Below, in pieces: positions 1 to 61,564 of a DNA stretch of 64,000 bases. Both the position numbers and the translations under genes were made by a program. Source of the DNA: Gemmatimonadota bacterium (GTDB lineage Bacteria > Gemmatimonadota > Gemmatimonadetes > Gemmatimonadales > GWC2-71-9); contig QHUT01000054.1 of assembly GCA_003222055.1 (NCBI GenBank), positions 15,022-79,021 on the forward strand, in the 5' to 3' direction. The first letter of the stretch is position 1; every line of letters starts with the position of its first letter. The notes beneath the pieces are model-generated. The model did not search any database, was not told the DNA's origin, and worked only from the letters and a program-made list of their open reading frames with translations.

Positions 1-158
1 TCGATGCGCACTCGCCACCCCTCCTCGCGGGCGGTGCCGAGCAGCAGCGCCACGGCATCGGGGGAGGCGGGCGCGACGCGCGGCACGCCGTCGGGCGTCG
101 CCGCGACCTCGACGGCTTCATCGCCCAGCAGGGCGCGGACGCGATCCAAGAGACTCAT
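1..158 (-). CDS. FAD-binding oxidoreductase, GlcE-like (N-terminal fragment; runs off the window)
   Basis: My own minus-strand translation from ATG 158..156 gives MSLLDRVRALLGDEAVEVAATPDGVPRVAPASPDAVALLLGTAREEGWRVRI. This resembles the N-terminus of a PCMH-type FAD-binding subunit. The ATG overlaps the TGA of the upstream glcD-like gene (ATGA). Confidence 0.45.
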   Translation of the reverse strand, partial: MSLLDRVRALLGDEAVEVAATPDGVPRVAPASPDAVALLLGTAREEGWRVRI

Positions 159-1657
159 CGAGCGGTTGCCTTCCGATCGATTGCGGATTGTGGATTGCGG
201 ATTGCGGATTGAGCCCCAGGGTTCGGCGCTCGCCCCATCCGCAATCCACTCCATTCCCGACACGCGTGCACCGGAACCACCTTCCCCGGGTTCACCCGCT
301 CCTCCGGGTCCCACACGTGGCGCACCGCGCGCATGGCGGCGAGCGAATCGCCGTCGAACAGGAGCGGCATGTAGCGGAGCTTGTCGAGCCCGATGCCGTG
401 CTCTCCCGTGATGGTCCCGCCGGCGGCGATGCACGTGGCCATGATTTCCGCGCTGGCCGCTTCCACCCGCTCGCGCAGGCCCGGCGTGCGGCCGTCGAAC
501 GAAATGTTGGGGTGCAGGTTGCCGTCGCCCGCGTGGAACACATTGCTGACCGTGAGCCCGTACTCGGCGGCGATCCGGGCGATCGTTTCCAGCACGTCGG
601 GGAGCGTGGAGCGGGGAACGACGGCGTCCTGGACCACCAGGTCGCGCGACAGCCGGCCCATGGCGCCGAAGGCTTTCTTGCGGCCGAGCCACAGCTTCTC
701 GCGCTGTTGCGCGTCCGCGGCCACGAGCACCGACCGCGCCCCGTGCGCGCGCAGCACGGCTTGGATCGTCTCGGCGTCCGCCGCGACCGCCGCCTCGTGC
801 GCGCCGTCGAGCTCGGCGAGCAGCACCGCCGCGGCATCGCGCGGGTAACCGGCCGCGTACACCGAGTCCTCCACTGCCTGGATGCACGACTGATCCATCA
901 TCTCGAGCGCGGCGGGCACGATCCCGCTGGCGATCACGGCGGACACGGCCTCACCGGCGGTACGCAATGAGGTGAAGTCGGCGAGCAAGGTGCGAACCGC
1001 CCGCGCGACGGGCAACAGCCGCACGGTGATGCGCGTCGCCACGCCGAAGTTGCCCTCCGAGCCGACGAACAGGCCGACCAGGTCGGGGCCCCACGGCTCG
1101 CCGCCGGGGCTGCCCAGCTCTACGACGCGTCCGTCCGCCAGCGCCACTTCCAGCGCGAGCACATGTGTCGCCGTCACCCCGTACTTGAGGCAGTGCGGGC
1201 CGCCCGCGTTTTCGGCCACGTTGCCGCCGATCGTACACGCGGTCTGACTCGAGGGATCGGGCGTATACTGCAGTCCGTGCGGTGCGGCGGCGACGGAGAG
1301 ACGGACGTTGACGACGCCGGGCTCGACCACGGCCAGCCTGTTGCGGGCGTCGATCTTGAGGATGCGGTTCAGCCGGGTCAGCACGATCAGCACCGCGTCG
1401 CCGTCGGCCAGCGCGCCCCCCGAGAGGCCGGTGCCCGCGCCACGTGGCACGAACGGCATGCCGAGCGCGCCGAGCAGCCGCACGACCGCGATCACCTCGT
1501 CCCGACTCCCCGGGAGCACGACCACGCCGGGCACGCGCCGGTGCGTGGGCAGCCCGTCCTTCGCGTACGTCACGCGCTCCGGCAGCGCCGTCCGCACGTG
1601 GCGCGGTCCGACGATCTCGGCGAGGGTGTCGACTAACGGCGCGAGGTCCCGTGCCAT
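155..1657 (-). CDS. glcD: FAD-linked oxidase, glycolate oxidase subunit GlcD / D-lactate dehydrogenase family
   Basis: Track ORF 155..1753. The likely start is ATG 1657 (MARDLAPLVDTLAEIVGPRHV). Motifs include VVLPGSRDEVIAVVRL, PRGAGTGLSGGA and C-terminal NPGKVVPVHACREWSG, which aligns with the E. coli GlcD tail. The last ~27 codons are encoded by repeat element A1. Confidence 0.85.
   Translation of the reverse strand: MARDLAPLVDTLAEIVGPRHVRTALPERVTYAKDGLPTHRRVPGVVVLPGSRDEVIAVVRLLGALGMPFVPRGAGTGLSGGALADGDAVLIVLTRLNRILKIDARNRLAVVEPGVVNVRLSVAAAPHGLQYTPDPSSQTACTIGGNVAENAGGPHCLKYGVTATHVLALEVALADGRVVELGSPGGEPWGPDLVGLFVGSEGNFGVATRITVRLLPVARAVRTLLADFTSLRTAGEAVSAVIASGIVPAALEMMDQSCIQAVEDSVYAAGYPRDAAAVLLAELDGAHEAAVAADAETIQAVLRAHGARSVLVAADAQQREKLWLGRKKAFGAMGRLSRDLVVQDAVVPRSTLPDVLETIARIAAEYGLTVSNVFHAGDGNLHPNISFDGRTPGLRERVEAASAEIMATCIAAGGTITGEHGIGLDKLRYMPLLFDGDSLAAMRAVRHVWDPEERVNPGKVVPVHACREWSGLRMGRAPNPGAQSAIRNPQSAIDRKATAR
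179..249. repeat. Heptamer-array palindromic element, family A (GCGGATT/AATCCGC), copy A1, one arm degenerate
   Basis: GATTGCGGATTGTGGATTGCGGATTGCGGATTG at 179..211, with partner CATCCGCAATCCAC at 236..249. It is translated as the GlcD-like C-terminus. Confidence 0.9.
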
Positions 1658-1674
1658 GGGTAAATAGTATACCG

Positions 1675-1790
1675 GCAGACGCCCAGACGCCGAGACGCCC
1701 AGCGGTGCGTAGCAGAGAGGGGCCAGGAATCCGTCTTCCTGGCCCCTTATCACGACATCCCGCTAGGCGTCTGAGCGTCTCGGCGTCTGC
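1675..1790. repeat. Composite palindrome: 30-nt arms of NNGCGTCT/AGACGCNN octamers around an inner 11-bp hairpin
   Basis: GCAGACGCCCAGACGCCGAGACGCCCAGCG (1675..1704) against CGCTAGGCGTCTGAGCGTCTCGGCGTCTGC (1761..1790), 26 of 30 complementary. The inner hairpin is GGGGCCAGGAA-TCCGTC-TTCCTGGCCCC at 1719..1746. Confidence 0.9.
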
Positions 1791-29363: not shown

Positions 29364-30040
29364 ACCGTCACCAGGCAGCGGCGCTTCAGGTCGCGCACCT
29401 CGCGCGCCGGGTCGGGGCTCGCGAAAATCGCGTTCCCCACGACGAACGTGTCGGCGCCCGCCGCGTGCGCGGTGGCGATGGTCTGCGCGGTGATGCCGCC
29501 GTCCACCTCGAGGAACGCGCCCGACCCGTGCGTCGTGAGCAGCTCGCGCGCGCGGCGGATCTTGTCGTCCGCCGAGGCAAGATACGACTGGCCCCCGAAC
29601 CCCGGGTTCACGGTCATCACGAGCAGCAGATCCAGGTCGGCGATCACCTCTGCGGCGAGCGCGAGCGGCGAGCCGGGGTTGAGCGCCAGTCCCGCGAGCA
29701 TGCCGCGGCTCCGCGCCTCGGCCAGCTGGCGCTGGACGTGCACCGTCGCCTCGGGGTGGAACGTGAACACCGACGCGCCCGCCGCCGCGAAGGGCTCGAG
29801 GTAGCGCTCCGGCTCGACCACCATCAGATGCACGTCGATCGGCTTGTCCGTGAGCCGGCGCAGCGCTTCGATCATGTTGGCACCGAACGTGAGATTCGGC
29901 ACGAACCGTCCGTCCATCACGTCGACGTGCAGCCAATCGGCGCCCGCCTCGAGCACCTGACCCACCTGCTCGGCGAGGCGGGTGAGATCGGCCGCCAAGA
30001 GGCTGGGCGCGATGCGGATGCCGTTCATCCTCTTGATCAT
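29360..30040 (-). CDS. rpe: Ribulose-phosphate 3-epimerase
   Basis: IAPSLLAADLTRLAEQV...DWLHVDVMDGRFVPNLTFG...VMTVNPGFGGQ...EVDGGI. Confidence 0.9.
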   Translation of the reverse strand: MIKRMNGIRIAPSLLAADLTRLAEQVGQVLEAGADWLHVDVMDGRFVPNLTFGANMIEALRRLTDKPIDVHLMVVEPERYLEPFAAAGASVFTFHPEATVHVQRQLAEARSRGMLAGLALNPGSPLALAAEVIADLDLLLVMTVNPGFGGQSYLASADDKIRRARELLTTHGSGAFLEVDGGITAQTIATAHAAGADTFVVGNAIFASPDPAREVRDLKRRCLVTV

Positions 30041-30810
30041 CACGGGCTCCGGGCCACGACGACGTCCACCACGGTGCCGGGGGCGGCCAGCGTACCCGCC
30101 GCCGGCCGCTGCGCGATCACGGTGCCCGGCGTCGCTTCGCCCGAGCGGCGCCGCGTCACGGTACCCAGCGCGAGCCCCTCCTGCTCCAGACGGGTGCGAG
30201 CATCCGCCTGCGACAGGCCGAGCAGGCCCGGCACCGCGATGGTCGGGGCGCCCCGGCTCACCACCACCGTCACCGGCGCCCCCGGGGCCAGGAGCGTCGT
30301 GGCGGCCGGCCGGGTGAGCATCGTCACGCCGGGGGCCGCCGCGGCCTGCACCGACTCCACCTGCGCCACGGTGAGCCCGGCCGCGACGATCAGCTGCTGC
30401 GCCAGCGGTCCATCCAGGCCGGCCACGTGCGGTACCGGAATCTTGGGGGGACCGTCGCTCGACACCAGGGTCACCCGCAGCCCCGCCGGCGCGCTCACGC
30501 CGGCAGGCGGGTCCTGCCAAATGATGCTGCCCTGTGGGGCGCTGGGGTGCGACTCTGAGCCGCCGTCCTGCACCTGCAGCCCCGCCTTGCGGAGCGCGGC
30601 CGAGGCCTCCTGCAGCGACAGACCCAGCACGCGTGGTACGACATCGTGTCCGTGCAGGATGGGGGCGGGAAAGAGAACGAGGTACGCCGTCAGATACCCT
30701 ATCACGATGGCTCCGACGAGGGCGAGTCCCCAACGTCGCGCCCCGGACAGGTCGCCGAAGGCGGGCAGCTTCCATTCCTGCAGCGGCGGGACGTGACGGC
30801 GGAGCTGCAT
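30040..30810 (-). CDS. Membrane-anchored PASTA-domain protein (three PASTA-like repeats, no kinase or PBP domain)
   Basis: One TM segment (WGLALVGAIVIGYLTAYLVLF), then three repeats ~65-70 aa long of the type VPxVxGLsxxxAxxxLxxaGL...V. Confidence 0.7.
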   Translation of the reverse strand: MQLRRHVPPLQEWKLPAFGDLSGARRWGLALVGAIVIGYLTAYLVLFPAPILHGHDVVPRVLGLSLQEASAALRKAGLQVQDGGSESHPSAPQGSIIWQDPPAGVSAPAGLRVTLVSSDGPPKIPVPHVAGLDGPLAQQLIVAAGLTVAQVESVQAAAAPGVTMLTRPAATTLLAPGAPVTVVVSRGAPTIAVPGLLGLSQADARTRLEQEGLALGTVTRRRSGEATPGTVIAQRPAAGTLAAPGTVVDVVVARSP

Positions 30811-32060
30811 CAGCGCGTCCGCGCGAAGCGCGCCGCGTATGCACCGTCGATTCCGTCGCGCTGTGGCAGGGACTGCAGGTCGCCGTCCGGAGTGAGCAGG
30901 GCAGCCGGCACCGCGGCCGGCACGGGCGCGCGCCCGAACTCAGGGTGGCAGGCGAGGAACTCGGTCACGATGTCGTCGTTCTCCTCCGGCTCGAGCGAGC
31001 AGGTACTGTAGACGAGCAGTCCTCCCGCACCGACGAGCGTTGCGGCGGCCGCGAGCAGCGCCCGCTGCCGCCGGGCGGCGTGTACGATCGTGCGCGGCGT
31101 GATCCGCCAGCGGGCGTCCGGATGCCGGGCCATGGTGCCGGTAGCGGAGCACGGGGCGTCCACCAACACGGCGGATGCGGTTCCCGGCGCGAGCGGTGCC
31201 GACAGAAGATCGGCGACCGTCACCCGGATCGCCACTCCCGCCCGTCGCGTCGTCTCGGCCAGCCGGCGCATGCGCTCCGGCCGGGCGTCCCCCGCCACGA
31301 CTCGAGCGCCGCCCCGCTCCAGCATCACGGCCTTGCCGCCCGGCGCGGCACAGGCGTCGTACACGAGCGCTCCCGGGGGGATCGCGGCGTAGCGGCAGAC
31401 GAGGGCGTGGGCGGGGTCCTGGACGATAAAGCCGCCTTCCGAATACCCCGGCAACTGCACGGGAAACGGGAAACGGGAAACGTGGTCGAGGCGTGACACC
31501 CGCAGGCCGGCTCCATGGGGCGCTTCTTCTACACCAAACCCGACCTTCCGGAGCTCGAGCGCGAGCACATCGGCGGACCAACGGGCAGGCTGAAGCGTGA
31601 GATTCGGCTTCGTGTCATTCCAGGCGACCAGCCGGGTTGTGTCGGTCGCCCCAAAGAGGCGCCGCCAGCGCTCGACGAGCCACGACGGGTGCGTGTTCTC
31701 GCCCGTTTCCCGTTTCCGGTTTCCCGTTTCCCGAGCGAGCCTTCGCAGCGCCTGGTTCACATACCTCGCTGCCGCGTCGCCCGCCGCTTCCCGCGCCAGC
31801 TCCACGCTGGTGGCGACCGCCGCGTAGGCCGGCACGCGGGCCAATGCGGCCAGCTGGTAGGCGCCAAGACGGAGGACATCGTGCAGGCGCGGGTCGGCGT
31901 GGCGCAGCCGCAGCCGGCGGTCGAGATCCGCTCGCCCCCGCAGCACGCCGGCGGCGAGCTCATAGGCGAGCCGGCGGTCCCGCCCGGCGAGCGTGGGAAG
32001 CACCCGGTCCCGCGCCGCCTGGAACGTGCCGCCGGAGCGCACCGCCTGGAGGATGTGCAA
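30810..32060 (-). CDS. rsmB: 16S rRNA (cytosine967-C5)-methyltransferase
   Basis: HPSWLVERW, FIVQDPAHALV, DACAAPGGK, DAPCSATGT and YSTCSLEPEEN. It contains two in-frame heptamer arrays (see repeats). Confidence 0.9.
   Translation of the reverse strand: MHILQAVRSGGTFQAARDRVLPTLAGRDRRLAYELAAGVLRGRADLDRRLRLRHADPRLHDVLRLGAYQLAALARVPAYAAVATSVELAREAAGDAAARYVNQALRRLARETGNRKRETGENTHPSWLVERWRRLFGATDTTRLVAWNDTKPNLTLQPARWSADVLALELRKVGFGVEEAPHGAGLRVSRLDHVSRFPFPVQLPGYSEGGFIVQDPAHALVCRYAAIPPGALVYDACAAPGGKAVMLERGGARVVAGDARPERMRRLAETTRRAGVAIRVTVADLLSAPLAPGTASAVLVDAPCSATGTMARHPDARWRITPRTIVHAARRQRALLAAAATLVGAGGLLVYSTCSLEPEENDDIVTEFLACHPEFGRAPVPAAVPAALLTPDGDLQSLPQRDGIDGAYAARFARTR
31459..31482. repeat. (GGGAAAC)x3 heptamer array inside rsmB
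   Basis: ACGGGAAACGGGAAACGGGAAACG. It is translated on the minus strand as SRFPFP. Confidence 0.9.
31702..31733. repeat. (CCCGTTT)x4 heptamer array inside rsmB, inverted partner of 31459..31482
   Basis: CCCGTTTCCCGTTTCCGGTTTCCCGTTTCCCG. It is translated on the minus strand as RETGNRKRETG. Confidence 0.9.
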
Positions 32061-32088
32061 CGCCGCGCGCCGGGCGGCGGTGGCGTCG

Positions 32089-32886
32089 CTAATCCAGCAT
32101 TCCTTCGAGCGGCGACGACGGCACGGCGACCTCGCGCTTGGGCATGCGGCCCGCGAGGTAGGCGGTCCGGCCGGCCTCGACGGCCAGCCGCATCGCGTGC
32201 GCCATGCCCACGGGGTCTCGGGCCGCCGCCAGTGCGGTGTTCATCAGGATTCCGTCCACGCCCTGCTCCATCGTCACGCAGGCATCCGAGGCGGTCCCGA
32301 CGCCGGCGTCCACCACGACCGGCACCGTGAGCCGGTGCTTGATCGTCCGGACCCCGTACGGATTCAGGAGCCCCAGCCCGCTGCCGATCGGCGACGCCAG
32401 CGGCATCACGGCGGCGCACCCCGCGTCCTCGAGACGCAACGCGGTGACGAGATCCTCGTTGGTATAGGCCAGTACTTTGAAGCCGTCCTTGACCAGGGTG
32501 CGCGCTGCGTCCAGCAAACCCTGGACGTCGGGGAGCAGCGTCTCCTGGTCGCCGATCACCTCGAGCTTGACGAACTCGTTGAACCCGGCTTCGCGCGCCA
32601 GGCGGGCGTAGCGCACGGCGTCGTCGGCCGTGAAGCAGCCCGCGGTGTTCGCGAGCAGGACATAGCGGTTCGGATCGAGGTGGTGCAGGATCCCCGTCTC
32701 TTTCGAGCGATCGAGGTCCACGCGGCGCACCGCCACGGTCACGACCTCGGCCCCCGAGGCCTCGATTGCGCGAGCCATCGTTTCATTGTCGCGATACTTG
32801 CCCGTGCCCACCATGAGGCGCGAGTGGAACGTGCGACCGCCCACGACGAACGGCGTGTCCCGGACGGCGTCTACGGCCATGGTCAT
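32089..32886 (-). CDS. thiG: Thiazole synthase
   Basis: FHSRLMVGTGKY...VTVAVRR...LANTAGC...VMPLASPIGSGLG. Confidence 0.9.
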   Translation of the reverse strand: MTMAVDAVRDTPFVVGGRTFHSRLMVGTGKYRDNETMARAIEASGAEVVTVAVRRVDLDRSKETGILHHLDPNRYVLLANTAGCFTADDAVRYARLAREAGFNEFVKLEVIGDQETLLPDVQGLLDAARTLVKDGFKVLAYTNEDLVTALRLEDAGCAAVMPLASPIGSGLGLLNPYGVRTIKHRLTVPVVVDAGVGTASDACVTMEQGVDGILMNTALAAARDPVGMAHAMRLAVEAGRTAYLAGRMPKREVAVPSSPLEGMLD

Positions 32887-32891
32887 GCGTG

Positions 32892-33104
32892 TCAGCCCCC
32901 TCCCACGAAATGCACCAGCTCGATCGCGTCGCCTGCGGCCACGGTCACGTCGCCCAGCCTGGGGCGCCGCACGATCGCGCGGTTGTGCTCGACCACGACG
33001 GCGCGGGGGTCGAGCTCGAGCGCGCGGAGCAGCTCGAGCAGCGTGGCGCCGCGCGCCACCGTTCGGGGCTCCCCGTTCACCATCACGTCGATCGAATCGT
33101 TCAC
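32892..33104 (-). CDS. thiS: Sulfur carrier protein ThiS
   Basis: VNGEPRTV...IELVHFVGGG with a C-terminal GG. GTG 33104 forms a GTGA overlap with the thiE stop. ATG 33083 is an alternative start. Confidence 0.8.
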   Translation of the reverse strand: MNDSIDVMVNGEPRTVARGATLLELLRALELDPRAVVVEHNRAIVRRPRLGDVTVAAGDAIELVHFVGGG

Positions 33105-33733
33105 GACTGCCACTCCTCGAGCATCAGCCGCGCTGCGTCCGCGGGATCGCCTGCATCCCACAGCGCCCGGATCGCGGCGACACCGTAAGCTCCCGCGCCC
33201 CGCACCTCCGCCACCCGCTGGGGCGTCACACCGCCGATCGCGATCACCGGGAGGCCTAGGCCAACAATGGGCCCGAGCCGCGCGAGTCCCAGGGGCTCGC
33301 GGTCGGGATGGGTGGCGGTGCCGTACAGCGGTCCTGCTAAAAGATAGTCAGCTCCGCTGGCGCGCGCGGCTTCCGCCTCGGCCAAGTCGTGCACCGACTT
33401 GCCGATCCACCACCTGGGTTCGAGCCGGCGGGCGTCCTGCGGATCGAGACTCGCCGCTCCGAGCTGAACGCCCGCGGCTCCGACGGCGAGCGCCACGTCG
33501 AGGCGGTCGTTGATAAAGAGTCGGGTAGGCGGATAGACGGCCAGACGGGTAGCGAGTTCGTAGTGCTCTCGTCCCGACAGACCGCGGCCGCGCGCGTGCA
33601 GGGCGAGGCGCTCACCGCCGCCTGCCGCCAGCGCGCGGGCGACATCGTCCATGTCGGGCCTGCGGGCGATGCGCTCATCCGTAATGGCGTGCAGCCGCGG
33701 CAGCGCCCCCCCCTTCTCTCCGGCGCGCGTCAC
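33101..33733 (-). CDS. thiE: Thiamine-phosphate synthase
   Basis: LHAITDE...LHARG...INDRLDVALA...GVQLG...IAIGGV. The start is taken as GTG 33733 (GTGA overlap with the fmt stop). The track ORF starts at 33775. Confidence 0.85.
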   Translation of the reverse strand: MTRAGEKGGALPRLHAITDERIARRPDMDDVARALAAGGGERLALHARGRGLSGREHYELATRLAVYPPTRLFINDRLDVALAVGAAGVQLGAASLDPQDARRLEPRWWIGKSVHDLAEAEAARASGADYLLAGPLYGTATHPDREPLGLARLGPIVGLGLPVIAIGGVTPQRVAEVRGAGAYGVAAIRALWDAGDPADAARLMLEEWQS

Positions 33734-34653
33734 GCGAACCGCTGGCCCGCTCGCACCCCGCGCCCGCGCAGCCATTCCGCGGCGGCCATGCGCGGCTTTC
33801 CGGCCGCCTGGACTTCTTCCACCGCCACCGCGCCTCGGCCCGTCGTGATGCGTAATTCGTCATCCGTCGTCCGGACCTCTCCGGGGGCACCGCGATCCTC
33901 CACGACGCGGGCGCCGAACAGCTTTACCTCGCGACCGTCCAGCTCGGTCCACGCGCCGGGTTTGGGGTCGAGGCCGCGGATCACGCGCGCCACTCGCTCG
34001 GCGGGCTCGTCCCACGGGATCCGCGCCGCCTCACGGGTGAGCTTGGGGGCATAGGTGGCGCGGGAGTGGTCCTGGGGGCGCGGCTCGAGGCCGTCGGTCT
34101 CGAGCAGCGCAAGGGCCTCGACGAGCGCCTGCGCCCCCATTTCCGAGAGGTGCTCGGACAGCTCGCCGCCTGTGGCCTCCGGGTCGACGTGGTGCGGGAT
34201 CTGATGGAGGATCGGGCCTGAGTCGAGTCCCGCGTCCATGAGCATGATCGTGACGCCGGTCTGCTCGAGACCGTTCAAGATGGCCCATTCGACGGGAGCC
34301 GCACCGCGCAACTCGGGGAGGAGCGAAGGGTGGACGTTGATCATGCCGCGGCGCGGGACCGCAAGCAGGTCGGGCTTGAGGATGTGCCCATAGGCGACCA
34401 CGACCCCCACGTCGGGGCTGAGGGCGCGGACCCGGGCGACGAACTCGGGGTCGGAGGGCCGCACGGGCTGGAGCACCGGGATGCCTTCGGCCTCGGCGGC
34501 CCGCTTCACGGGCGGCGGCACGGCGGTCGAGCGCGACCGTCCCTGCGGCTTGTCGGGCTGCGTGACCGCCGCCACGACGTCGAAGCCCTCGCCCAGGAGC
34601 GCCTCGAGCGGCGGGACCGCGAACTCGGGCGTTCCGAAGAAGACGACGCGCAC
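33730..34653 (-). CDS. fmt: Methionyl-tRNA formyltransferase
   Basis: MRVVFFGTPEFAVPPLEAL...NVHPSLLPELRGAAP. Confidence 0.92.
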   Translation of the reverse strand: MRVVFFGTPEFAVPPLEALLGEGFDVVAAVTQPDKPQGRSRSTAVPPPVKRAAEAEGIPVLQPVRPSDPEFVARVRALSPDVGVVVAYGHILKPDLLAVPRRGMINVHPSLLPELRGAAPVEWAILNGLEQTGVTIMLMDAGLDSGPILHQIPHHVDPEATGGELSEHLSEMGAQALVEALALLETDGLEPRPQDHSRATYAPKLTREAARIPWDEPAERVARVIRGLDPKPGAWTELDGREVKLFGARVVEDRGAPGEVRTTDDELRITTGRGAVAVEEVQAAGKPRMAAAEWLRGRGVRAGQRFA

Positions 34654-35534: not shown

Positions 35535-36727
35535 GCGGATCCCGATCGCAGGTAGCGGCGGCGCCAGGCATCGGCCCACGGGCCGAAGGCGTTCCGCCGG
35601 ATCGCGGCCCGCATGTCCTGCGCGAGCCGGATCAGGTAGCGGACGTTGTGCAGCGACAACAGTCTCAGGCCCAGCAGCTCTTCCGCTACGAACAGGTGCC
35701 GGAGGTACCCCCGCGAGAACGTGGTGCACGCCTCGCAGTCGCACGAGTCGTCGAGCGGCCGCGGGTCCTCGCGGTGCTCGGCGTTGCGAATGTTCACGGG
35801 GCCGTCGGGCGTGAAGGCCGAGCCGTTTCGCCCGTTGCGCGTCGGCGCCACGCAGTCGAACAGATCCAGCCCGCGCTCCACCGCCGCCACCAGGTCCTCG
35901 GGAAACCCCACGCCCATAAGATAACGCGGCAGGGCGGGGGGGAGCCGCGGCTCGAGCGCGTCGAGCATCGCGTACATCGCCGCCTTGGGCTCGCCGACCG
36001 AGAGGCCGCCGATCGCGAGACCGGTCCAGTCGCGCATGTCGCAGATCCGGCGCAGTCCTTCCTCCCGCAGCGCGAGATGGACGCCGCCCTGGAGAATGGG
36101 CCACAAGGTCTGGTTGCACGACGCTACGACGCCACGTTGCAAGGAGTGCCCGGCGTCAGTCGTGGAACGTGGCGTCGTAGCGTCGTGTGACGCTTTCAGT
36201 TCCTCATGCCGCTTCCGGCACCGCTCCAACCATCTCAGCGTTCGCTCGAGGGCGTCCCTGGCCGCGCTCTCGTCCGCGCCCCCGGGGACCACGTGGTCGA
36301 ACGCCATCGCGACGTCGGCGCCCAGGGTCCACTGGATCTCCGTGGCGCGCTCGGGCGTGAGCCGGCGACGGCCGCCGTCCACGTGGCTCTGGAACTCGAC
36401 GCCGTCGTCGTCCACGCGCCGGAAGCCCTCGAGCGAGAATACCTGGAAGCCGCCCGAGTCCGTGAGCAGCGGTCGATCCCAGCCCATGAAGCGGTGCAGC
36501 GCGCCGAGCGTCGCCACCACCTCCTCGCCCGGGCGCACGTGCAGGTGATAGGTGTTCGCGAGCACGAGCGTCGCGCCCGCGGCGCGGAGGTCGTTGGGCG
36601 AAAGCGCCCGCACGGTGCCTTGAGTCCCGACCGGCATGAAGACCGGCGTTTCGACGCTACCGTGCGGGAGGGTGAGGGTGCCGGCGCGGGCGGGGCCGGA
36701 GGTCGCGTCGACCTTGAACTCGAACAC
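35531..36727 (-). CDS. tgt: Queuine tRNA-ribosyltransferase (tRNA-guanine transglycosylase)
   Basis: The start GTG 36727 gives (M)FEFKVDATSGPARAGTL, which aligns with E. coli MKFELDTTDGRARRGRL. Also LTDSGGFQVFSL, GLAIGGLSVGE and CDCEAC. The ~25-aa loop HDATTPRSTTDAGHSLQRGVVAS is encoded by palindrome B1. The track ORF N-terminus (to 36811) runs through repeat A2 and is rejected. Confidence 0.92.
   Translation of the reverse strand: MFEFKVDATSGPARAGTLTLPHGSVETPVFMPVGTQGTVRALSPNDLRAAGATLVLANTYHLHVRPGEEVVATLGALHRFMGWDRPLLTDSGGFQVFSLEGFRRVDDDGVEFQSHVDGGRRRLTPERATEIQWTLGADVAMAFDHVVPGGADESAARDALERTLRWLERCRKRHEELKASHDATTPRSTTDAGHSLQRGVVASCNQTLWPILQGGVHLALREEGLRRICDMRDWTGLAIGGLSVGEPKAAMYAMLDALEPRLPPALPRYLMGVGFPEDLVAAVERGLDLFDCVAPTRNGRNGSAFTPDGPVNIRNAEHREDPRPLDDSCDCEACTTFSRGYLRHLFVAEELLGLRLLSLHNVRYLIRLAQDMRAAIRRNAFGPWADAWRRRYLRSGSA
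36117..36187. repeat. Octamer-array palindromic element, family B (CACGACGC/GCGTCGTG), copy B1, inside tgt
   Basis: Perfect 22-bp inverted repeat: CACGACGCTACGACGCCACGTT (36117..36138) and AACGTGGCGTCGTAGCGTCGTG (36166..36187), with a 27-nt loop. Confidence 0.95.
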
Positions 36728-36734
36728 GGGCGTT

Positions 36735-36812
36735 ATTGCGGATTGCGGATTTCGGATTGCGGATTCGAAAGTCGGGCGTCCAATCCGCAATCCACAATCC
36801 GCAATCCGCAAT
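36735..36812. repeat. Heptamer-array palindromic element, family A, copy A2
   Basis: Left arm ATTGCGGATTGCGGATTTCGGATTGCGGATT (36735..36765). Loop CGAAAGTCGGGCGTCC. Right arm AATCCGCAATCCACAATCCGCAATCCGCAAT (36782..36812). 29 of 31 positions are complementary. It fills the queA-tgt gap. Confidence 0.95.
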
Positions 36813-37864
36813 CAGAGTACCGCCATTGCATCCCCATACGAGTAAAACCGGTATCCCTCCCTTACCGCTTCCCCGTACGCCCGCATGACGTTGTCATAGC
36901 CCCCGAACGCGCACACCAACATTAGCAGGGTCGAGCGCGGCAGGTGGAAGTTCGTGAGCAGCCGGTCGACCGCGCGGAACGAGTACGGGGGGTGAATGAA
37001 GAGCCGGGTCTCGCCGGCGCCCGGAGCGATGCGGCCGCGCTCGCCGGCAAGCGTTTCGAGCGTGCGCACGACCGTGGTCCCGACCGCCCAGACGCGACCT
37101 CCCGCTTCCCGTCGCTCGTTGATGATCCCGGCCGCGCTGTCGCTCACCCGGTACGGCTCGTCGTGCATCGCATGGCGCGCGAGGTCGTCGGTCTCGACCG
37201 GCTTGAAGGTGCCGGGGCCGACGTGCAGGTCCACTTCCGCGAGCGCCACGCCCTTGTCGCGCAGCCGGTCCAACAGGTCGCGCGTGAAATGCAATCCGGC
37301 CGTGGGAGCGGCGACGCTGCCGTCGTGTGCCGCGTACACCGTCTGGTAGCGCTCGCGATCCTCGGGGCGCGGCGCGCGGCGGATGTAGGGCGGCAGTGGC
37401 ACCTCGCCGTACTTGGCGAGCGTGGCCGGGGCGTCGAGCGCGCCGACGAACCGCACCCGGCGGAGGCCGCCTCCCAACGCCTCGACGATCTCCGCGGTGC
37501 TGTCGGGGCCGAACGTCACGCGGCGTCCCGACTTGAGCTTGCCTCCGGGATGCCCCATGGCGAGCCAGGTCCCATCGGGTAGCTCCCGGACGAGCAAGAG
37601 TTCGGCCTTGCCGCCGGACCCGCCCATCCCGCTTCCCGCAAGCCGCATCCCGTGCAGTCTCGCCGGAATCACGCGTGACACGTTGACGACGAGCACGTCC
37701 TCCGGCGCCACCAGATCGACGACGTCGACGAACCGCCCGTGGCGGATCGCCCCGCTGGCGCGATCGAGCACCAGGAGGCGACTCCCGCCCCGATCGGGGA
37801 GCGGGTCTTGGGCGATCTGCTCGGCTGGCAGACTGTAGTCGAAGTCTGAAGTTCGGTAGAGCAC
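36812..37864 (-). CDS. queA: S-adenosylmethionine:tRNA ribosyltransferase-isomerase
   Basis: The start GTG 37864 gives (M)LYRTSDFDYSLPAEQIAQDPL, which aligns with E. coli MRVTDFSFELPESLIAHYP. Also TRVIPARL-like VSRVIPARL, AAPTAGLHFT and FRFYSYGDAM. The track ORF N-terminus runs through repeat A3. Confidence 0.92.
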   Translation of the reverse strand: MLYRTSDFDYSLPAEQIAQDPLPDRGGSRLLVLDRASGAIRHGRFVDVVDLVAPEDVLVVNVSRVIPARLHGMRLAGSGMGGSGGKAELLLVRELPDGTWLAMGHPGGKLKSGRRVTFGPDSTAEIVEALGGGLRRVRFVGALDAPATLAKYGEVPLPPYIRRAPRPEDRERYQTVYAAHDGSVAAPTAGLHFTRDLLDRLRDKGVALAEVDLHVGPGTFKPVETDDLARHAMHDEPYRVSDSAAGIINERREAGGRVWAVGTTVVRTLETLAGERGRIAPGAGETRLFIHPPYSFRAVDRLLTNFHLPRSTLLMLVCAFGGYDNVMRAYGEAVREGYRFYSYGDAMAVL

Positions 37865-37870
37865 GCCGAG

Positions 37871-37952
37871 AATTGCGGATGGCGGATTTCGGATTGCGGA
37901 TTCGAAGGTCGTGGGTCCAATCCGCAATCCGCACTCCACAATCCGCAATCCG
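37871..37952. repeat. Heptamer-array palindromic element, family A, copy A3
   Basis: AATTGCGGATGGCGGATTTCGGATTGCGGATT, loop CGAAGGTCGTGGGTCC, then AATCCGCAATCCGCACTCCACAATCCGCAATCCG. It fills the ruvB-queA gap. Confidence 0.95.
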
Positions 37953-56068: not shown

Positions 56069-57252
56069 CCGACATCGCCTACCACCCGACGCGCCTGCGC
56101 GCCTTGCGCGACCAGTTCCGCGCGCTGCGCGCCGCCGAGTTTCCCTGGACCGCGGACACCGTCTATTTGAACAACGCGTCCATCGGGCCCATCCCGGAGC
56201 GCACCCGCCGCGTACTCGACGAGTTCACCGCCAAGCGCACCGCCCCACACCTCCTCCCGGACCGCGAGCTGCAGGCGGGGCTGCAGGCGGCGCGCGCGGC
56301 GGTCGCCCGCCTGCTCAACGCGGAGCCGGCCGAGATCGCGCTCGCCACCAACACCAGTCACGGGCTGAACCTCGCGGCGCGCGCCCTGCCGCTCAAGCGC
56401 CGCGACGTGGTGCTCGTGTCCGATCGCGAGTTCCCTGCCAACGTGTACCCGTGGCTGCTGCTCAAGAAGCAGGGGATCGAAGTGGAGCTCGCTCCGTGCG
56501 CCGGCGAAGGCTGGCCCGACGAGGACTATCTGGTCGAGCGTCTGCATGACCCGCGCGTGCGCGTGCTCGCCGTCTCGTTCGTCCAGTTCGCCAACGGGTA
56601 CCGCGCAGACCTGGGGCGCCTCGGGGCCGCCTGCCGTGCCAACGGGACGTTTCTCGTGGTGGATGGGATTCAGGGCGTAGGAAACTCGACCCTCGACGTG
56701 CGCGAGACCCCCGTGGACATCCTCGCGTGCGGCGGCCAGAAGTGGCTGCTCTCCCCCTGGGGCTCGGGCTTCGTGTACGTGCGGCGCGAGCTCATCTCGG
56801 CGCTCGAGCCCGCCGTCACCGGCTGGATGGCGTTCGAAGGGACCGACGACTTCTCCCGCCTCACCGAGTACAACCCCACCTTCCGCGCCGACGCCCGCCG
56901 CTTCGAAATGGTCACCCTGCCGTTCCAGGACTTCCACGGCATGACGACATCAGTCGGCATGCTCGCCGAGCTGGGCGTCGACGACATCGCGCAGTACGCC
57001 CGTACACTGCACGAGCCGGTGCTCCACTGGGCCGAGGAGAACGGCATCCGCGTCGTCTCACCCTCGGACGATGCGCACCGCTCGGCCATCGTCTGCCTCG
57101 CACCCCAGCATCCCGCCGAGGCGTATCACGCGCTCAAGCGCGCGCACGTCGTCTGCTCGTTGCGCGAGGGCGCCATCCGCCTGGCTCCGCATTGCTACAA
57201 CACCGTCGAAGAGATGGAGCGGGTGGTCGACGTACTCGACCAGTTAGAGTAA
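56065..57252 (+). CDS. Class V aminotransferase-fold PLP enzyme (cysteine desulfurase/selenocysteine lyase-like)
   Basis: VYLNNASIGPIPERT...TNTSHGLN...DGIQGVG...GGQKWLLSPWGSGF. 4-nt overlap with the dppC-like stop. Confidence 0.8.
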   Translation: MTDIAYHPTRLRALRDQFRALRAAEFPWTADTVYLNNASIGPIPERTRRVLDEFTAKRTAPHLLPDRELQAGLQAARAAVARLLNAEPAEIALATNTSHGLNLAARALPLKRRDVVLVSDREFPANVYPWLLLKKQGIEVELAPCAGEGWPDEDYLVERLHDPRVRVLAVSFVQFANGYRADLGRLGAACRANGTFLVVDGIQGVGNSTLDVRETPVDILACGGQKWLLSPWGSGFVYVRRELISALEPAVTGWMAFEGTDDFSRLTEYNPTFRADARRFEMVTLPFQDFHGMTTSVGMLAELGVDDIAQYARTLHEPVLHWAEENGIRVVSPSDDAHRSAIVCLAPQHPAEAYHALKRAHVVCSLREGAIRLAPHCYNTVEEMERVVDVLDQLE

Positions 57253-57259
57253 AGCGTTA

Positions 57260-57330
57260 CACGACGCCACGACGCCACGACGCCACGTTGCGAGAGCCTC
57301 TTTCGTGGAACGTGGCGTCCTGCCGTCATG
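57260..57330. repeat. Octamer-array palindromic element, family B, copy B2 (between convergent genes)
   Basis: (CACGACGC)x3 + CACGTT at 57260..57289, with partner AACGTGGCGTCCTGCCGTCATG at 57309..57330 (19 of 22 complementary). The loop starts GCGAG and ends TCGTGG, like B1. Confidence 0.9.
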
Positions 57331-57982
57331 CAACGCTCTCTCGGTGCTTATCCCCCCACCACGCCCACGCCACAAACAGCCACCCGAAGATGATACCGCC
57401 GATGGCGAGCGCGACGCGCGTCGTCGGCGGTGGCGGACTGAACAGCGAGCCGACGTACGACAGCAGCAGCACCGCGACGAGCGCCCAGAATCCGTAGCTC
57501 CCCGCGCGGTCGCGGGCTCGCGTGGCGGTGGCGTAGAGCCAGACGCCCGCGACGAACATCACTCCCTCGACGACCACCGTGCCGGCGACGGAGTTCCAGA
57601 GACCGAGCCCCAGCGGCGTGCCGCCCGGGTACAGCGGCATGTCGGGGCGATGGGTGACGTAGTCGAGCACCCAGTGGCTCACGACGAGGAGCGCGATCAC
57701 GACCCCTCCGCGGTCGTCCAGCGTGCGCGCGCGGTACACCAACCCGAACAGCGCGCCCCATCCGATCAGGGTGACGAGGCTGTGCGAGATCGGGATCGAG
57801 TCGAGCCACAGCGTCAGGAACGGATTCGGCCCCGGCACGACGTGGGCCTGCTCCCAGCCGAGCAGCAGGAACACCGGCCACAGCAGATCGGCGAGCGACG
57901 TGGCGGCGAACAGCGTGCCCAGCGAGGCTCGCGGCGCGGCACGCTTCGCGGCCAGGGCGACGGCGTAGTGGCCGATGAACAT
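57326..57982 (-). CDS. Integral membrane protein (putative membrane-bound metal-dependent hydrolase-like)
   Basis: MFIGHYAVALAAK... with about six hydrophobic segments and conserved His residues. The family is uncertain. The last codons lie in repeat B2. Confidence 0.5.
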   Translation of the reverse strand: MFIGHYAVALAAKRAAPRASLGTLFAATSLADLLWPVFLLLGWEQAHVVPGPNPFLTLWLDSIPISHSLVTLIGWGALFGLVYRARTLDDRGGVVIALLVVSHWVLDYVTHRPDMPLYPGGTPLGLGLWNSVAGTVVVEGVMFVAGVWLYATATRARDRAGSYGFWALVAVLLLSYVGSLFSPPPPTTRVALAIGGIIFGWLFVAWAWWGDKHRESVA

Positions 57983-61477: not shown

Positions 61478-61564
61478 GAGGGGCTAGGGGTCGGGGGCTA
61501 GGGGCTGGGGACTGCGCTGCCATCCCGAATCCCTGACCCCTGACCCCTGATCCCTGACCCCTGA
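61478..61564. repeat. G-tract / C-tract heptamer palindrome (GGGGCTA-type arm against CCCTGAC-type arm)
   Basis: GGGGCTAGGGGTCGGGGGCTAGGGGCTGGGG at 61480..61510 and CCCTGACCCCTGACCCCTGATCCCTGACCCCTGA at 61531..61564. The right arm ends at the ATG of the amidohydrolase gene. Confidence 0.9.

Follow-up and report, generated by a model that had tools for sequence, protein, structure and literature searches.

Two short heptamer arrays lie in inverted orientation inside rsmB, a gene on the minus strand of a 64,000-nucleotide stretch of Gemmatimonadota bacterium DNA (contig QHUT01000054.1, order Gemmatimonadales; this whole stretch is hereafter called the window). How do two translated segments more than 200 nt apart in one coding sequence come to be complementary, and does the protein, the mRNA or the DNA keep them so? 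Comparison with orthologues shows that the repeat unit was replaced at least ten times, in both arms together, and that it is the nucleotides whose complementarity has been maintained. We favour, at about even chances, an origin of this complementarity in concerted evolution of the DNA, with the stem that the mRNA can form as a by-product. The features on which the argument rests are the following:

30810..32060, minus strand: rsmB, encoding the 16S rRNA m5C967 methyltransferase (416 aa; identified from the open reading frame (ORF), Pfam and the alignment with the E. coli protein).
31702..31733, minus strand: arm A, mRNA CGGGAAACGGGAAACCGGAAACGGGAAACGGG, made up of 4.6 GGGAAAC units in which one G is changed to C; encodes R110-ETGNRKRETG-120 in the linker from the NusB to the ferredoxin-like domain.
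31459..31482, minus strand: arm B, complementary to arm A, with the mRNA sequence CGTTTCCCGTTTCCCGTTTCCCGT made up of 3.4 GTTTCCC units; its product, V194-SRFPFPV-201, belongs to the loop preceding LPGY.
31483..31701, minus strand: enclosed segment of 219 nt, which the predicted stem would loop out; it encodes the RsmF/B ferredoxin-like domain (Pfam 124-185).

Direct reading of the sequence, Tandem Repeats Finder (TRF) and an inverted-repeat search confirmed the original prediction of inverted GGGAAAC arrays about 220 nt apart, both translated and both keeping the frame. On the plus strand, positions 31459-31482 read ACGGGAAACGGGAAACGGGAAACG, in which three copies of GGGAAAC (31461-31481) stand within ACG...ACG, and positions 31702-31733 read CCCGTTTCCCGTTTCCGGTTTCCCGTTTCCCG, corresponding to 4.6 copies of CCCGTTT. 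The latter array had been predicted at this position as a fourfold repeat, with no mention of a mismatch; the position was correct, while the third unit turned out to be CCGGTTT, with one mismatch. TRF assigned a period of 7 to both arrays, the first with 3.4 copies (100%) and the second with 4.6 (92%). The best inverted arms (31459-31482 and 31704-31727) were 24 nt long, 96% complementary and spaced by 221 nt, and an alternative register (31457-31482 and 31711-31736) gave 26 nt at 92%. Searching the window for the 14-mer GGGAAACGGGAAAC with up to two mismatches returned five matches, every one inside the two rsmB arrays, compared to an expected count of 0.41, and a count of five was reached in none of 100 shuffles. 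The third-unit mismatch in arm A (G>C in the mRNA) is private to this lineage, as the related loci L082 and L083 carry a perfect (GGGAAAC)4. In the rsmB mRNA the G-rich arm A lies upstream and the C-rich arm B downstream, the polarity that had been predicted.

At the protein level, both arms are placed by the Pfam boundaries and by an AlphaFold (AF2) model between domains, and therefore lie in linker or loop sequence on either side of the small ferredoxin-like domain. The 416-codon ORF aligned with E. coli RsmB/Sun (PDB 1sqf) at E = 1.4e-36 (HMMER alignment), and its Pfam domains are NusB (21-110), RsmF-B_ferredox (124-185) and the RsmB/F methyltransferase domain (232-412), so that both arrays fall at the boundaries of the central domain, as had been claimed. 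Translation likewise confirmed the two peptides and their neighbours: R110-ETGNRKRETG-120 immediately precedes HPSWL, and S195-RFPFP-200 precedes LPGY...VQD. At the arm B site, E. coli RsmB was found to be four residues shorter in the HMMER alignment, not about six as first proposed, and distant Gemmatimonadales orthologues are about seven residues shorter. The ferredoxin-like domain itself is also present in E. coli RsmB and in the outgroup described below. In the AF2 model, which is of moderate quality (mean pLDDT 64.6), residues 112-125 are without secondary structure, pLDDT is below 50 over 113-129, and residues 190-199 are coil.

To follow the arrays through evolution, 120 RsmB homologues were aligned as proteins and the DNA of 80 orthologous loci was compared, comprising an ingroup of 59 genes with at least 57% amino-acid identity and an outgroup of 21 more distant orthologues. 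Among the 120 homologues the two linker peptides co-vary: TGNRKRETG occurs with SRFPFP, SGLGTRDSG with ARVPSPA, AGCGMRDAG with SRIPHPA, SGSGERGAV with APRSPLP and GDQVSGVG with TRHLTPRG. Each pair is the expected translation of complementary arrays of another heptamer. The orthologous DNA indeed holds, at matching codon positions, arrays of GGGAAAC, GGGAAGC, GGGATGC, GGGGCTC/GGGACTC, GGGGAGC, GGGAGCA/GGAGCAC, GGGTGTC/GGGTGCC, GGGAGTC, GGGGGAC, GGGGCTT and GGGGAGT, giving 11 unit types altogether. Both sites hold complementary arrays in about 45 of the 59 ingroup genes. Nearly all lineages conform to GGG[AGT]NN[C], and the G-rich arm is upstream in every array-bearing orthologue. The original prediction had named shared peptides lacking the periodicity as the outcome that would speak against it; the alignment revealed the opposite, namely different peptides with periodicity and complementarity kept. 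As the peptides differ wholly while these two properties persist, the constraint lies on the nucleic acid and not on the protein, and protein-level selection was rejected on the ground that the peptides change completely across the 120 homologues while the periodicity stays.

The coupling of the two arms was also evident from quantitative comparisons. Among the 59 ingroup genes, the mean complementarity score of a gene's own two arms was 15.6, compared to 8.5 for arm A and arm B taken from different species and 7.4 for the outgroup, which is without arrays. In 25 ingroup genes both arms are periodic and complementary (unit distance of at most 1), in two both are periodic and non-complementary (L051, L024), in 18 a single arm is clearly periodic and in 14 neither is. 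For 49 segments aligned by MAFFT, changes on both sides were counted in a single fixed register of 24 bp: 107 cells had changed jointly, compared to 51 +/- 7.6 in shuffles, and none of 500 shuffles reached 107. In the same register, the covariation score was 0.200 vs 0.144. Watson-Crick cells made up 70% in the 34 array-bearing sequences, compared to 57.7 +/- 1.8% for shuffled partners and 29-50% for slid partners. A shared unit class accounts for most of the arm complementarity; within one unit class, however, a gene's own partner still scored above a cross-species partner (20.3 vs 18.5, p = 0.007). In some clades the stem runs into non-periodic flanks (L006/L015 with GGTACC, L034, L024). Arm lengths are equal in five relatives with amino-acid identities of 84-97%, and arm B does not differ at any base, while adjacent codons vary.

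The arms appear to be old and vertically inherited from a single origin at two fixed sites, because both rsmB sites are occupied throughout the clade. Persistence is not complete: the arrays are gone from about a quarter of the ingroup species, and the share comes to between about a quarter and a third when uncoupled arrays are counted too. In L023, L051 and L056 the arms are uncoupled, and arm A has the unit of another local hairpin. All 120 homologues are in frame through both arrays. A phase-variable repeat (contingency locus) was rejected, given the absence of length polymorphism in close relatives, the intact frame of all homologues and the fact that L059, the sole frameshifted locus, has its shift upstream of the arrays. 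With regard to an invertible segment, the 219 nt between the arms are a conserved domain in one orientation in all orthologues. In the window, G GGA AAC stands in the zero frame at 31725-31719 (rsmB codons 112-114) and is a classical -1 frameshift slippery heptamer, which is probably incidental. Programmed -1 frameshifting on this motif was rejected because the slippery unit is not conserved, most lineages carrying non-slippery units such as GGGATGC and GGGGAGC.

Whether the pairing acts in the RNA was assessed by folding. A long-range stem that loops out about 220 nt of coding sequence, as originally proposed, was predicted in both the minimum free energy (MFE) and the centroid fold of the 311-nt sense RNA (-152.3 kcal/mol, compared to -134.1 +/- 5.6 kcal/mol for shuffles; z = -3.25). 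The proposal stands to this extent; its implied action in the RNA was not borne out, as the antisense strand folds almost equally well (z = -2.88) and G:U is not favoured. In the main classes, mismatches inside the best stems comprised 27 G:T and 27 A:C, and over all stem mismatches 36 sense wobbles (G:U) were found vs 43 antisense wobbles (A:C). A helix selected in the sense RNA should tolerate G:U far above A:C; since the counts are alike, the mismatch spectrum is strand-symmetric. RNAalifold returned no consensus pair over all 49 orthologous segments, because lineages without arrays and register shifts break any single fixed helix, and an Rfam scan of the whole window gave no match. Of the signs expected of a conserved cis-acting RNA helix, compensatory changes were present, while a G:U preference, a consensus fold and an Rfam family were not. 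Pairing in the rsmB mRNA is thus possible and predicted by the folding models, and nothing marks the RNA as the level of selection.

The rsmB pair has relatives nearby. TRF was run on the whole window for inverted arrays of 7-8 nt units, selected ORFs were compared with Pfam, and seven short-loop relatives were found, of which five directly follow stop codons, one is an in-frame part of tgt and one occupies the 3' codons of an oxidase gene:

36117..36187, minus strand: octamer hairpin (CACGACGC)n ... (GCGTCGTG)n, translated in frame in tgt (queuine tRNA-ribosyltransferase), aa 209-232.
36735..36813, no strand assigned: hairpin (ATTGCGG)x4.4 - 15 nt - (CAATCCG)x4.7, filling the gap between queA and tgt immediately after the queA stop.
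37872..37949, no strand assigned: (ATTGCGG)n hairpin with the unit of 36735-36813 and a similar loop, filling the ruvB|queA space directly behind the ruvB stop.
1675..1790, no strand assigned: inverted octamers (CAGACGCC)x3 ... (GGCGTCTG)x3, 54 nt apart, behind the stop of a sigma-70 gene.
57254..57336, no strand assigned: (CACGACGC)n hairpin behind the stop of an aminotransferase gene.
61486..61548, no strand assigned: (AGGGGCT)n ... (CCCTGAC)n, an imperfect example following the stop of a class A penicillin-binding protein gene.
179..249, no strand assigned: (GATTGCG)x4.7 array with a partial inverted partner, in the last ~30 codons of the FAD-linked oxidase ORF 155-1762 (minus strand).

The window thus contains three ATTGCGG and three CACGACGC elements within 64 kb, a count that covers the window and not the whole genome. 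The tgt insert (36105-36200) and the aminotransferase hairpin (57245-57345) align for about 85 nt (local alignment scores 40-42); as the match reaches into sequence beyond the arrays, the two are copies of one dispersed element family. Among 56 tgt orthologues the insert is, at exactly the same site, either absent or made of other units and lengths, from 0 to ~40 aa. The two intergenic hairpins at ruvB|queA and queA|tgt share one common unit in six of the eight genomes that have both sites, and this unit varies between genomes (ATTGCGG, AATGCGG or AACGCGG; loci L002-L057). Because the two hairpins agree within genomes and differ among them, the short-loop relatives evolve in concert between loci of one genome, beyond the two arms of one element.

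Some further observations concern these elements and the surroundings of rsmB. The arms at 1675-1790 enclose a separate G+C-rich hairpin (GGGGCCAGGAA...TTCCTGGCCCC), and their spacer is intermediate in length between the short-loop hairpins and the rsmB pair. The array at 179-249 lies beyond the end of the oxidase Pfam match and may be translated as a C-terminal tail. The gene row around rsmB is def-fmt-thiE-thiS-thiG-rsmB-PASTA protein-rpe, both in the window (30040-34653) and in L081-L087, with thiamine biosynthesis genes standing between fmt and rsmB, two genes that are adjacent in E. coli.

Arrays of this kind are common well beyond the window. In 1.33 Mb of Gemmatimonadales sequence, 133 arrays of at least three copies had a period of 7, compared to 17 with period 6, 51 with period 8 and five with period 9, and for 80 of the 133 period-7 arrays an inverted partner was found no more than 600 nt away. 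Scanning metagenomes for (GGGAAAC)3 returned at least 119 stretches, and rsmB was absent from the first 80 examined. Among the metagenome matches listed, the modal array length was four units, and 33 of 106 arrays, about a third, lay in convincing ORFs. Among the same matches, 87 arrays had enough flank for a second array within 400 nt to be sought; it was complementary and downstream (convergent) in 25 cases, complementary and upstream (divergent) in two and direct in four. Paired arrays are strongly polar, with the G-arm 5' on either strand. Where translated, the arrays read as GKRETGN or a cyclic permutation of it in Ffh, a phosphoglucomutase-family enzyme, an M20 peptidase, FtsK, Dxr and XdhC (contigs L101, L131/L160, L145/L202, L199/L151, L137 and L102). 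Identical GGGAAAC arrays also occur singly and in many unrelated genes. In FtsK both arms lie in one linker, the complementary FPVSRFP arm following ~25 residues after the G-arm peptide.

A second long-range pair was found in the pyruvate dehydrogenase E2 (PDH-E2) gene of Gemmatimonadales, where the arms flank the E3-binding domain (PSBD). In L135 (2926-4206) the G-arm occupies the linker from the lipoyl domain to PSBD (SGSGKRETGN) and the C-arm the linker from PSBD to the catalytic domain (SRVPFPE), with arms of 31 nt placed 234 nt apart; in L207 (1001-2260) the arms are 35 nt long and 226 nt apart. Similar to RsmB, the E2 linkers co-vary among 120 homologues (GSGKRETGN with FPVSRVPFP, GSGMRDAG with SHPASRIPHPA, GSGERGAV with PLPAPRSP), and their unit types, GGGAAAC, GGGATGC, GGGGAGC and GGGAGAC, match rsmB types. 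A long-range array pair around a small domain thus exists in two unrelated genes. Whether other genes carry paired GGGAAAC arrays had been raised in the original prediction; their presence in PDH-E2 and FtsK means that the pair is not specific to rsmB.

The two gene families also share an insert. An identical 24-nt sequence, CCTAAAGGACTCCCTGACGGTCGC, is placed at the exact junction of two heptamer units within the G-rich arm in three contexts, namely rsmB of L212 (~829-852, in a GGGATGC array), E2 of L213 (~814-837, GGGAAAC) and L205 (~2879-2902, GGGAAAC). It is read in frame as (A/T)LKDSLTVA, a peptide found inside the G-arm of some RsmB and some E2 homologues. CCTAAAGGACTCCCTGACGGTCGC looks like a very small mobile insert that targets heptamer arrays. 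Very small mobile repeats (SDR, 21-27 nt) were reportedly described in Nostoc by Elhai and colleagues in 2008; the 24-nt insert falls within this size range and likewise appears mobile, whereas its phylum and sequence are different.

Compared to known repeats, the rsmB arrays are closest in build to the GGGNATC-type G-rich heptamers of Xanthomonas and Nostoc, which have a 7-nt unit with a G3-4 tract and favour arrays of four (Rehm et al. 2015, PMC4692102). Xanthomonas genomes hold 70-75 convergent inverted pairs each, one dominant unit per genome and 89-93% of copies in intergenic sequence, where they lie close behind the upstream ORF, and the paired arms are close together (PMC4692102). Shared features are the tandem 7-nt unit with a tract of at least three G, the four-unit preference (4.6 units in arm A, four in L082 and L083, and the mode of four among the metagenome matches listed) and the convergent pairs, with the G-arm upstream in rsmB; the short-loop hairpins of the window also sit close behind ORFs with adjacent arms. 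In contrast, the rsmB arms are intragenic and 221 nt apart, several unit families coexist per genome, and about a third of the (GGGAAAC)3 arrays among the matches listed are in ORFs. Also unlike that class, the rsmB and E2 arms enclose a protein domain and are spaced by 221-234 nt, and pairs at orthologous sites have lasted while their units were replaced in concert.

Rickettsia palindromic elements (RPE) are hairpin-capable repeats translated in frame at structurally tolerant sites of unrelated housekeeping proteins; each is inserted whole, as a unit of ~150 bp that encodes a conserved peptide (reviewed in PMC10969869). In-frame repeats at tolerant sites are likewise seen here (the rsmB linkers, tgt, E2, Ffh, FtsK, Dxr, M20 peptidase and XdhC), but the rsmB arms are tandem arrays of 24-32 nt split around a host domain, with no conserved peptide and with drifting units. 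REP/REPIN sequences are short, dispersed, hairpin-forming palindromic doublets of species-specific sequence and within-genome homogeneity (Bertels & Rainey 2011, PMC3116915), and REPINs are extragenic and depend on a RAYT transposase (PMC3116915). The ATTGCGG hairpins resemble them as hairpin doublets that are homogeneous within a genome, whereas the rsmB arms are intragenic and built of tandem 7-8 nt units. Our literature search found no paper describing such repeats in Gemmatimonadota.

The rsmB pair, built of G3N4-type heptamers, is a stretched member, with a 221-nt spacer, of a Gemmatimonadales-wide class of array-armed inverted repeats in which the G-rich arm precedes the C-rich one. Other members of this class are the ~80-nt hairpins directly behind stop codons and the in-frame insertions in tolerant loops and linkers of many proteins. 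Maintenance of the pair would be mainly a DNA-level process, a reading that we consider about evenly poised between right and wrong. Transient slipped realignment within an array would let a new version of the unit spread, and templated correction or gene conversion would carry it from one complementary arm to the other and from one family member to the next, while the linkers would passively accept the resulting peptides, rich in Gly/Ser/Arg/Glu or in Pro/Ser/Arg/Phe. The long-range stem of 24-30 bp in mRNA or single-stranded DNA would then be a consequence that may affect rsmB expression without being a dedicated rsmB device. We prefer this reading because the mismatch spectrum is strand-symmetric, because periodicity persists although a helix does not require it, because the three uncoupled loci have taken the unit of a local hairpin into arm A, and because loci agree within a genome and arrays have repeatedly been lost. 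Quasi-palindrome template-switch mutagenesis (Ripley; Lovett) offers a DNA-level way to equalise imperfect inverted arms without selection, as the strand-symmetric mismatches suggest; the documented cases have arms separated by a few nt up to tens of nt, whereas the rsmB arms are separated by 221 nt, and to our knowledge template switching over such a spacer is not an established mechanism. This distance is one of several points that weigh against concerted evolution at the DNA level. About 45 lineages retain near-perfect arms where synonymous sites are otherwise saturated, and a purely neutral process should decay; the identity of arm B in relatives at 84% identity makes some selection for pairing or structure likely. 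Both the extension of the stem into non-repeat flanks and the advantage of the own over the cross-species partner within a unit class indicate coupling of two specific arms, and the like architecture and similar spacing in unrelated rsmB and PDH-E2 could reflect function. A regulatory reading specific to rsmB is not established.

An alternative explanation is that the arms form a functional long-range helix in poorly translated rsmB transcripts, where a duplex of ~25 bp would be cut by RNase III or would slow ribosomes at the domain boundaries and thereby tune RsmB output or operon polarity. The predicted stem (z = -3.25), the joint changes of both arms, numbering at least ten, the reach of the stem into flanks, the domain-flanking geometry repeated in PDH-E2 and arm nucleotides that close relatives conserve beyond the needs of the protein are all consistent with such a helix. 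The lack of a G:U preference (36 vs 43), the comparable folding of the antisense strand and the missing RNAalifold consensus over 49 orthologues and Rfam match in the window argue against it, as do the loss or uncoupling of arrays in a quarter to a third of the ingroup species, a tandem periodicity that no helix needs and the occurrence of identical arrays singly and in many unrelated genes, and we consider it unlikely, though worth keeping in view. The G-rich arm, with four G3 tracts and 4-nt loops, might instead fold as a G-quadruplex (G4) with which the C-rich arm competes, a switch that would influence transcription, replication or R-loops, in line with what has been proposed for GGGNATC repeats. 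Units that are nearly always G3-4N3-4 would suit this, as would a modal length of four units, the same as in Xanthomonas, where G4 formation was demonstrated in vitro, and the position of the G-arm 5' of the C-arm (25 vs 2 among the matches listed). However, other members in the window have GG tracts only or none (ATTGCGG, CAGACGCC, CACGACGC), one G3 tract of the window's own arm A is broken to GG, and several rsmB lineages have only three tracts, which leaves the switch a doubtful proposition.

The arms might also be two independent acquisitions of a mobile (REPIN/MITE-like) or factor-bound repeat, complementary only in that the genome's current unit happened to be placed in opposite orientations. 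The large share of complementarity explained by unit class fits this, together with the shared units of intergenic hairpins within genomes, the dispersed related copies in the window, the L023 locus, whose arm A but not arm B carries the unit of another hairpin of the locus, and the 24-nt insert, which targets arrays whatever their unit. Random orientation, however, predicts many direct or divergent pairs, while 25 of 31 second arrays among the matches listed are convergent; the clade-wide occupation of both rsmB sites points to a single origin, flanks beyond the arrays are complementary in several clades, and no transposase was identified, though none was systematically searched for. We rate independent acquisition as quite improbable. 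Chance, or selection of the peptides with incidental nucleotide repeats, can claim that both peptides lie in linkers, where low complexity is common, but the 14-mer count was unmatched in 100 shuffles, the peptides are unconserved where 7-nt periodicity and complementarity are conserved, and a 7-nt period does not fit a whole number of codons, so that we give it practically no credence. A more far-reaching version of DNA-level rewriting, which we regard as speculative and rather unlikely, is that an active templated system may write and homogenise G3N4 arrays genome-wide, with the 24-nt nano-element homing into them. All copies would then be periodically rewritten to a new unit, linkers of essential proteins such as RsmB, PDH-E2, FtsK, Ffh and Tgt would be recoded in concert, and the paired arms would be conserved long-range G4/hairpin switches.

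If the picture drawn here holds, rsmB would provide a rare and well-replicated case of complementarity between distant sites inside a bacterial coding sequence, maintained through many complete sequence changes and found in a second gene family too. An old question, whether such arms are selected structures or self-homogenising DNA repeats, would become testable. The arrays would also carry a warning, as they give lineage-specific low-complexity peptides and apparently 'co-evolving' residues that are artefacts of nucleotide constraint. For the organisms themselves, heptamer repeats would shape the linker sequences of housekeeping proteins, and G-quadruplex-type heptamers, so far mainly intergenic in Xanthomonas and cyanobacteria, would be abundant and routinely translated in an uncultured soil order.

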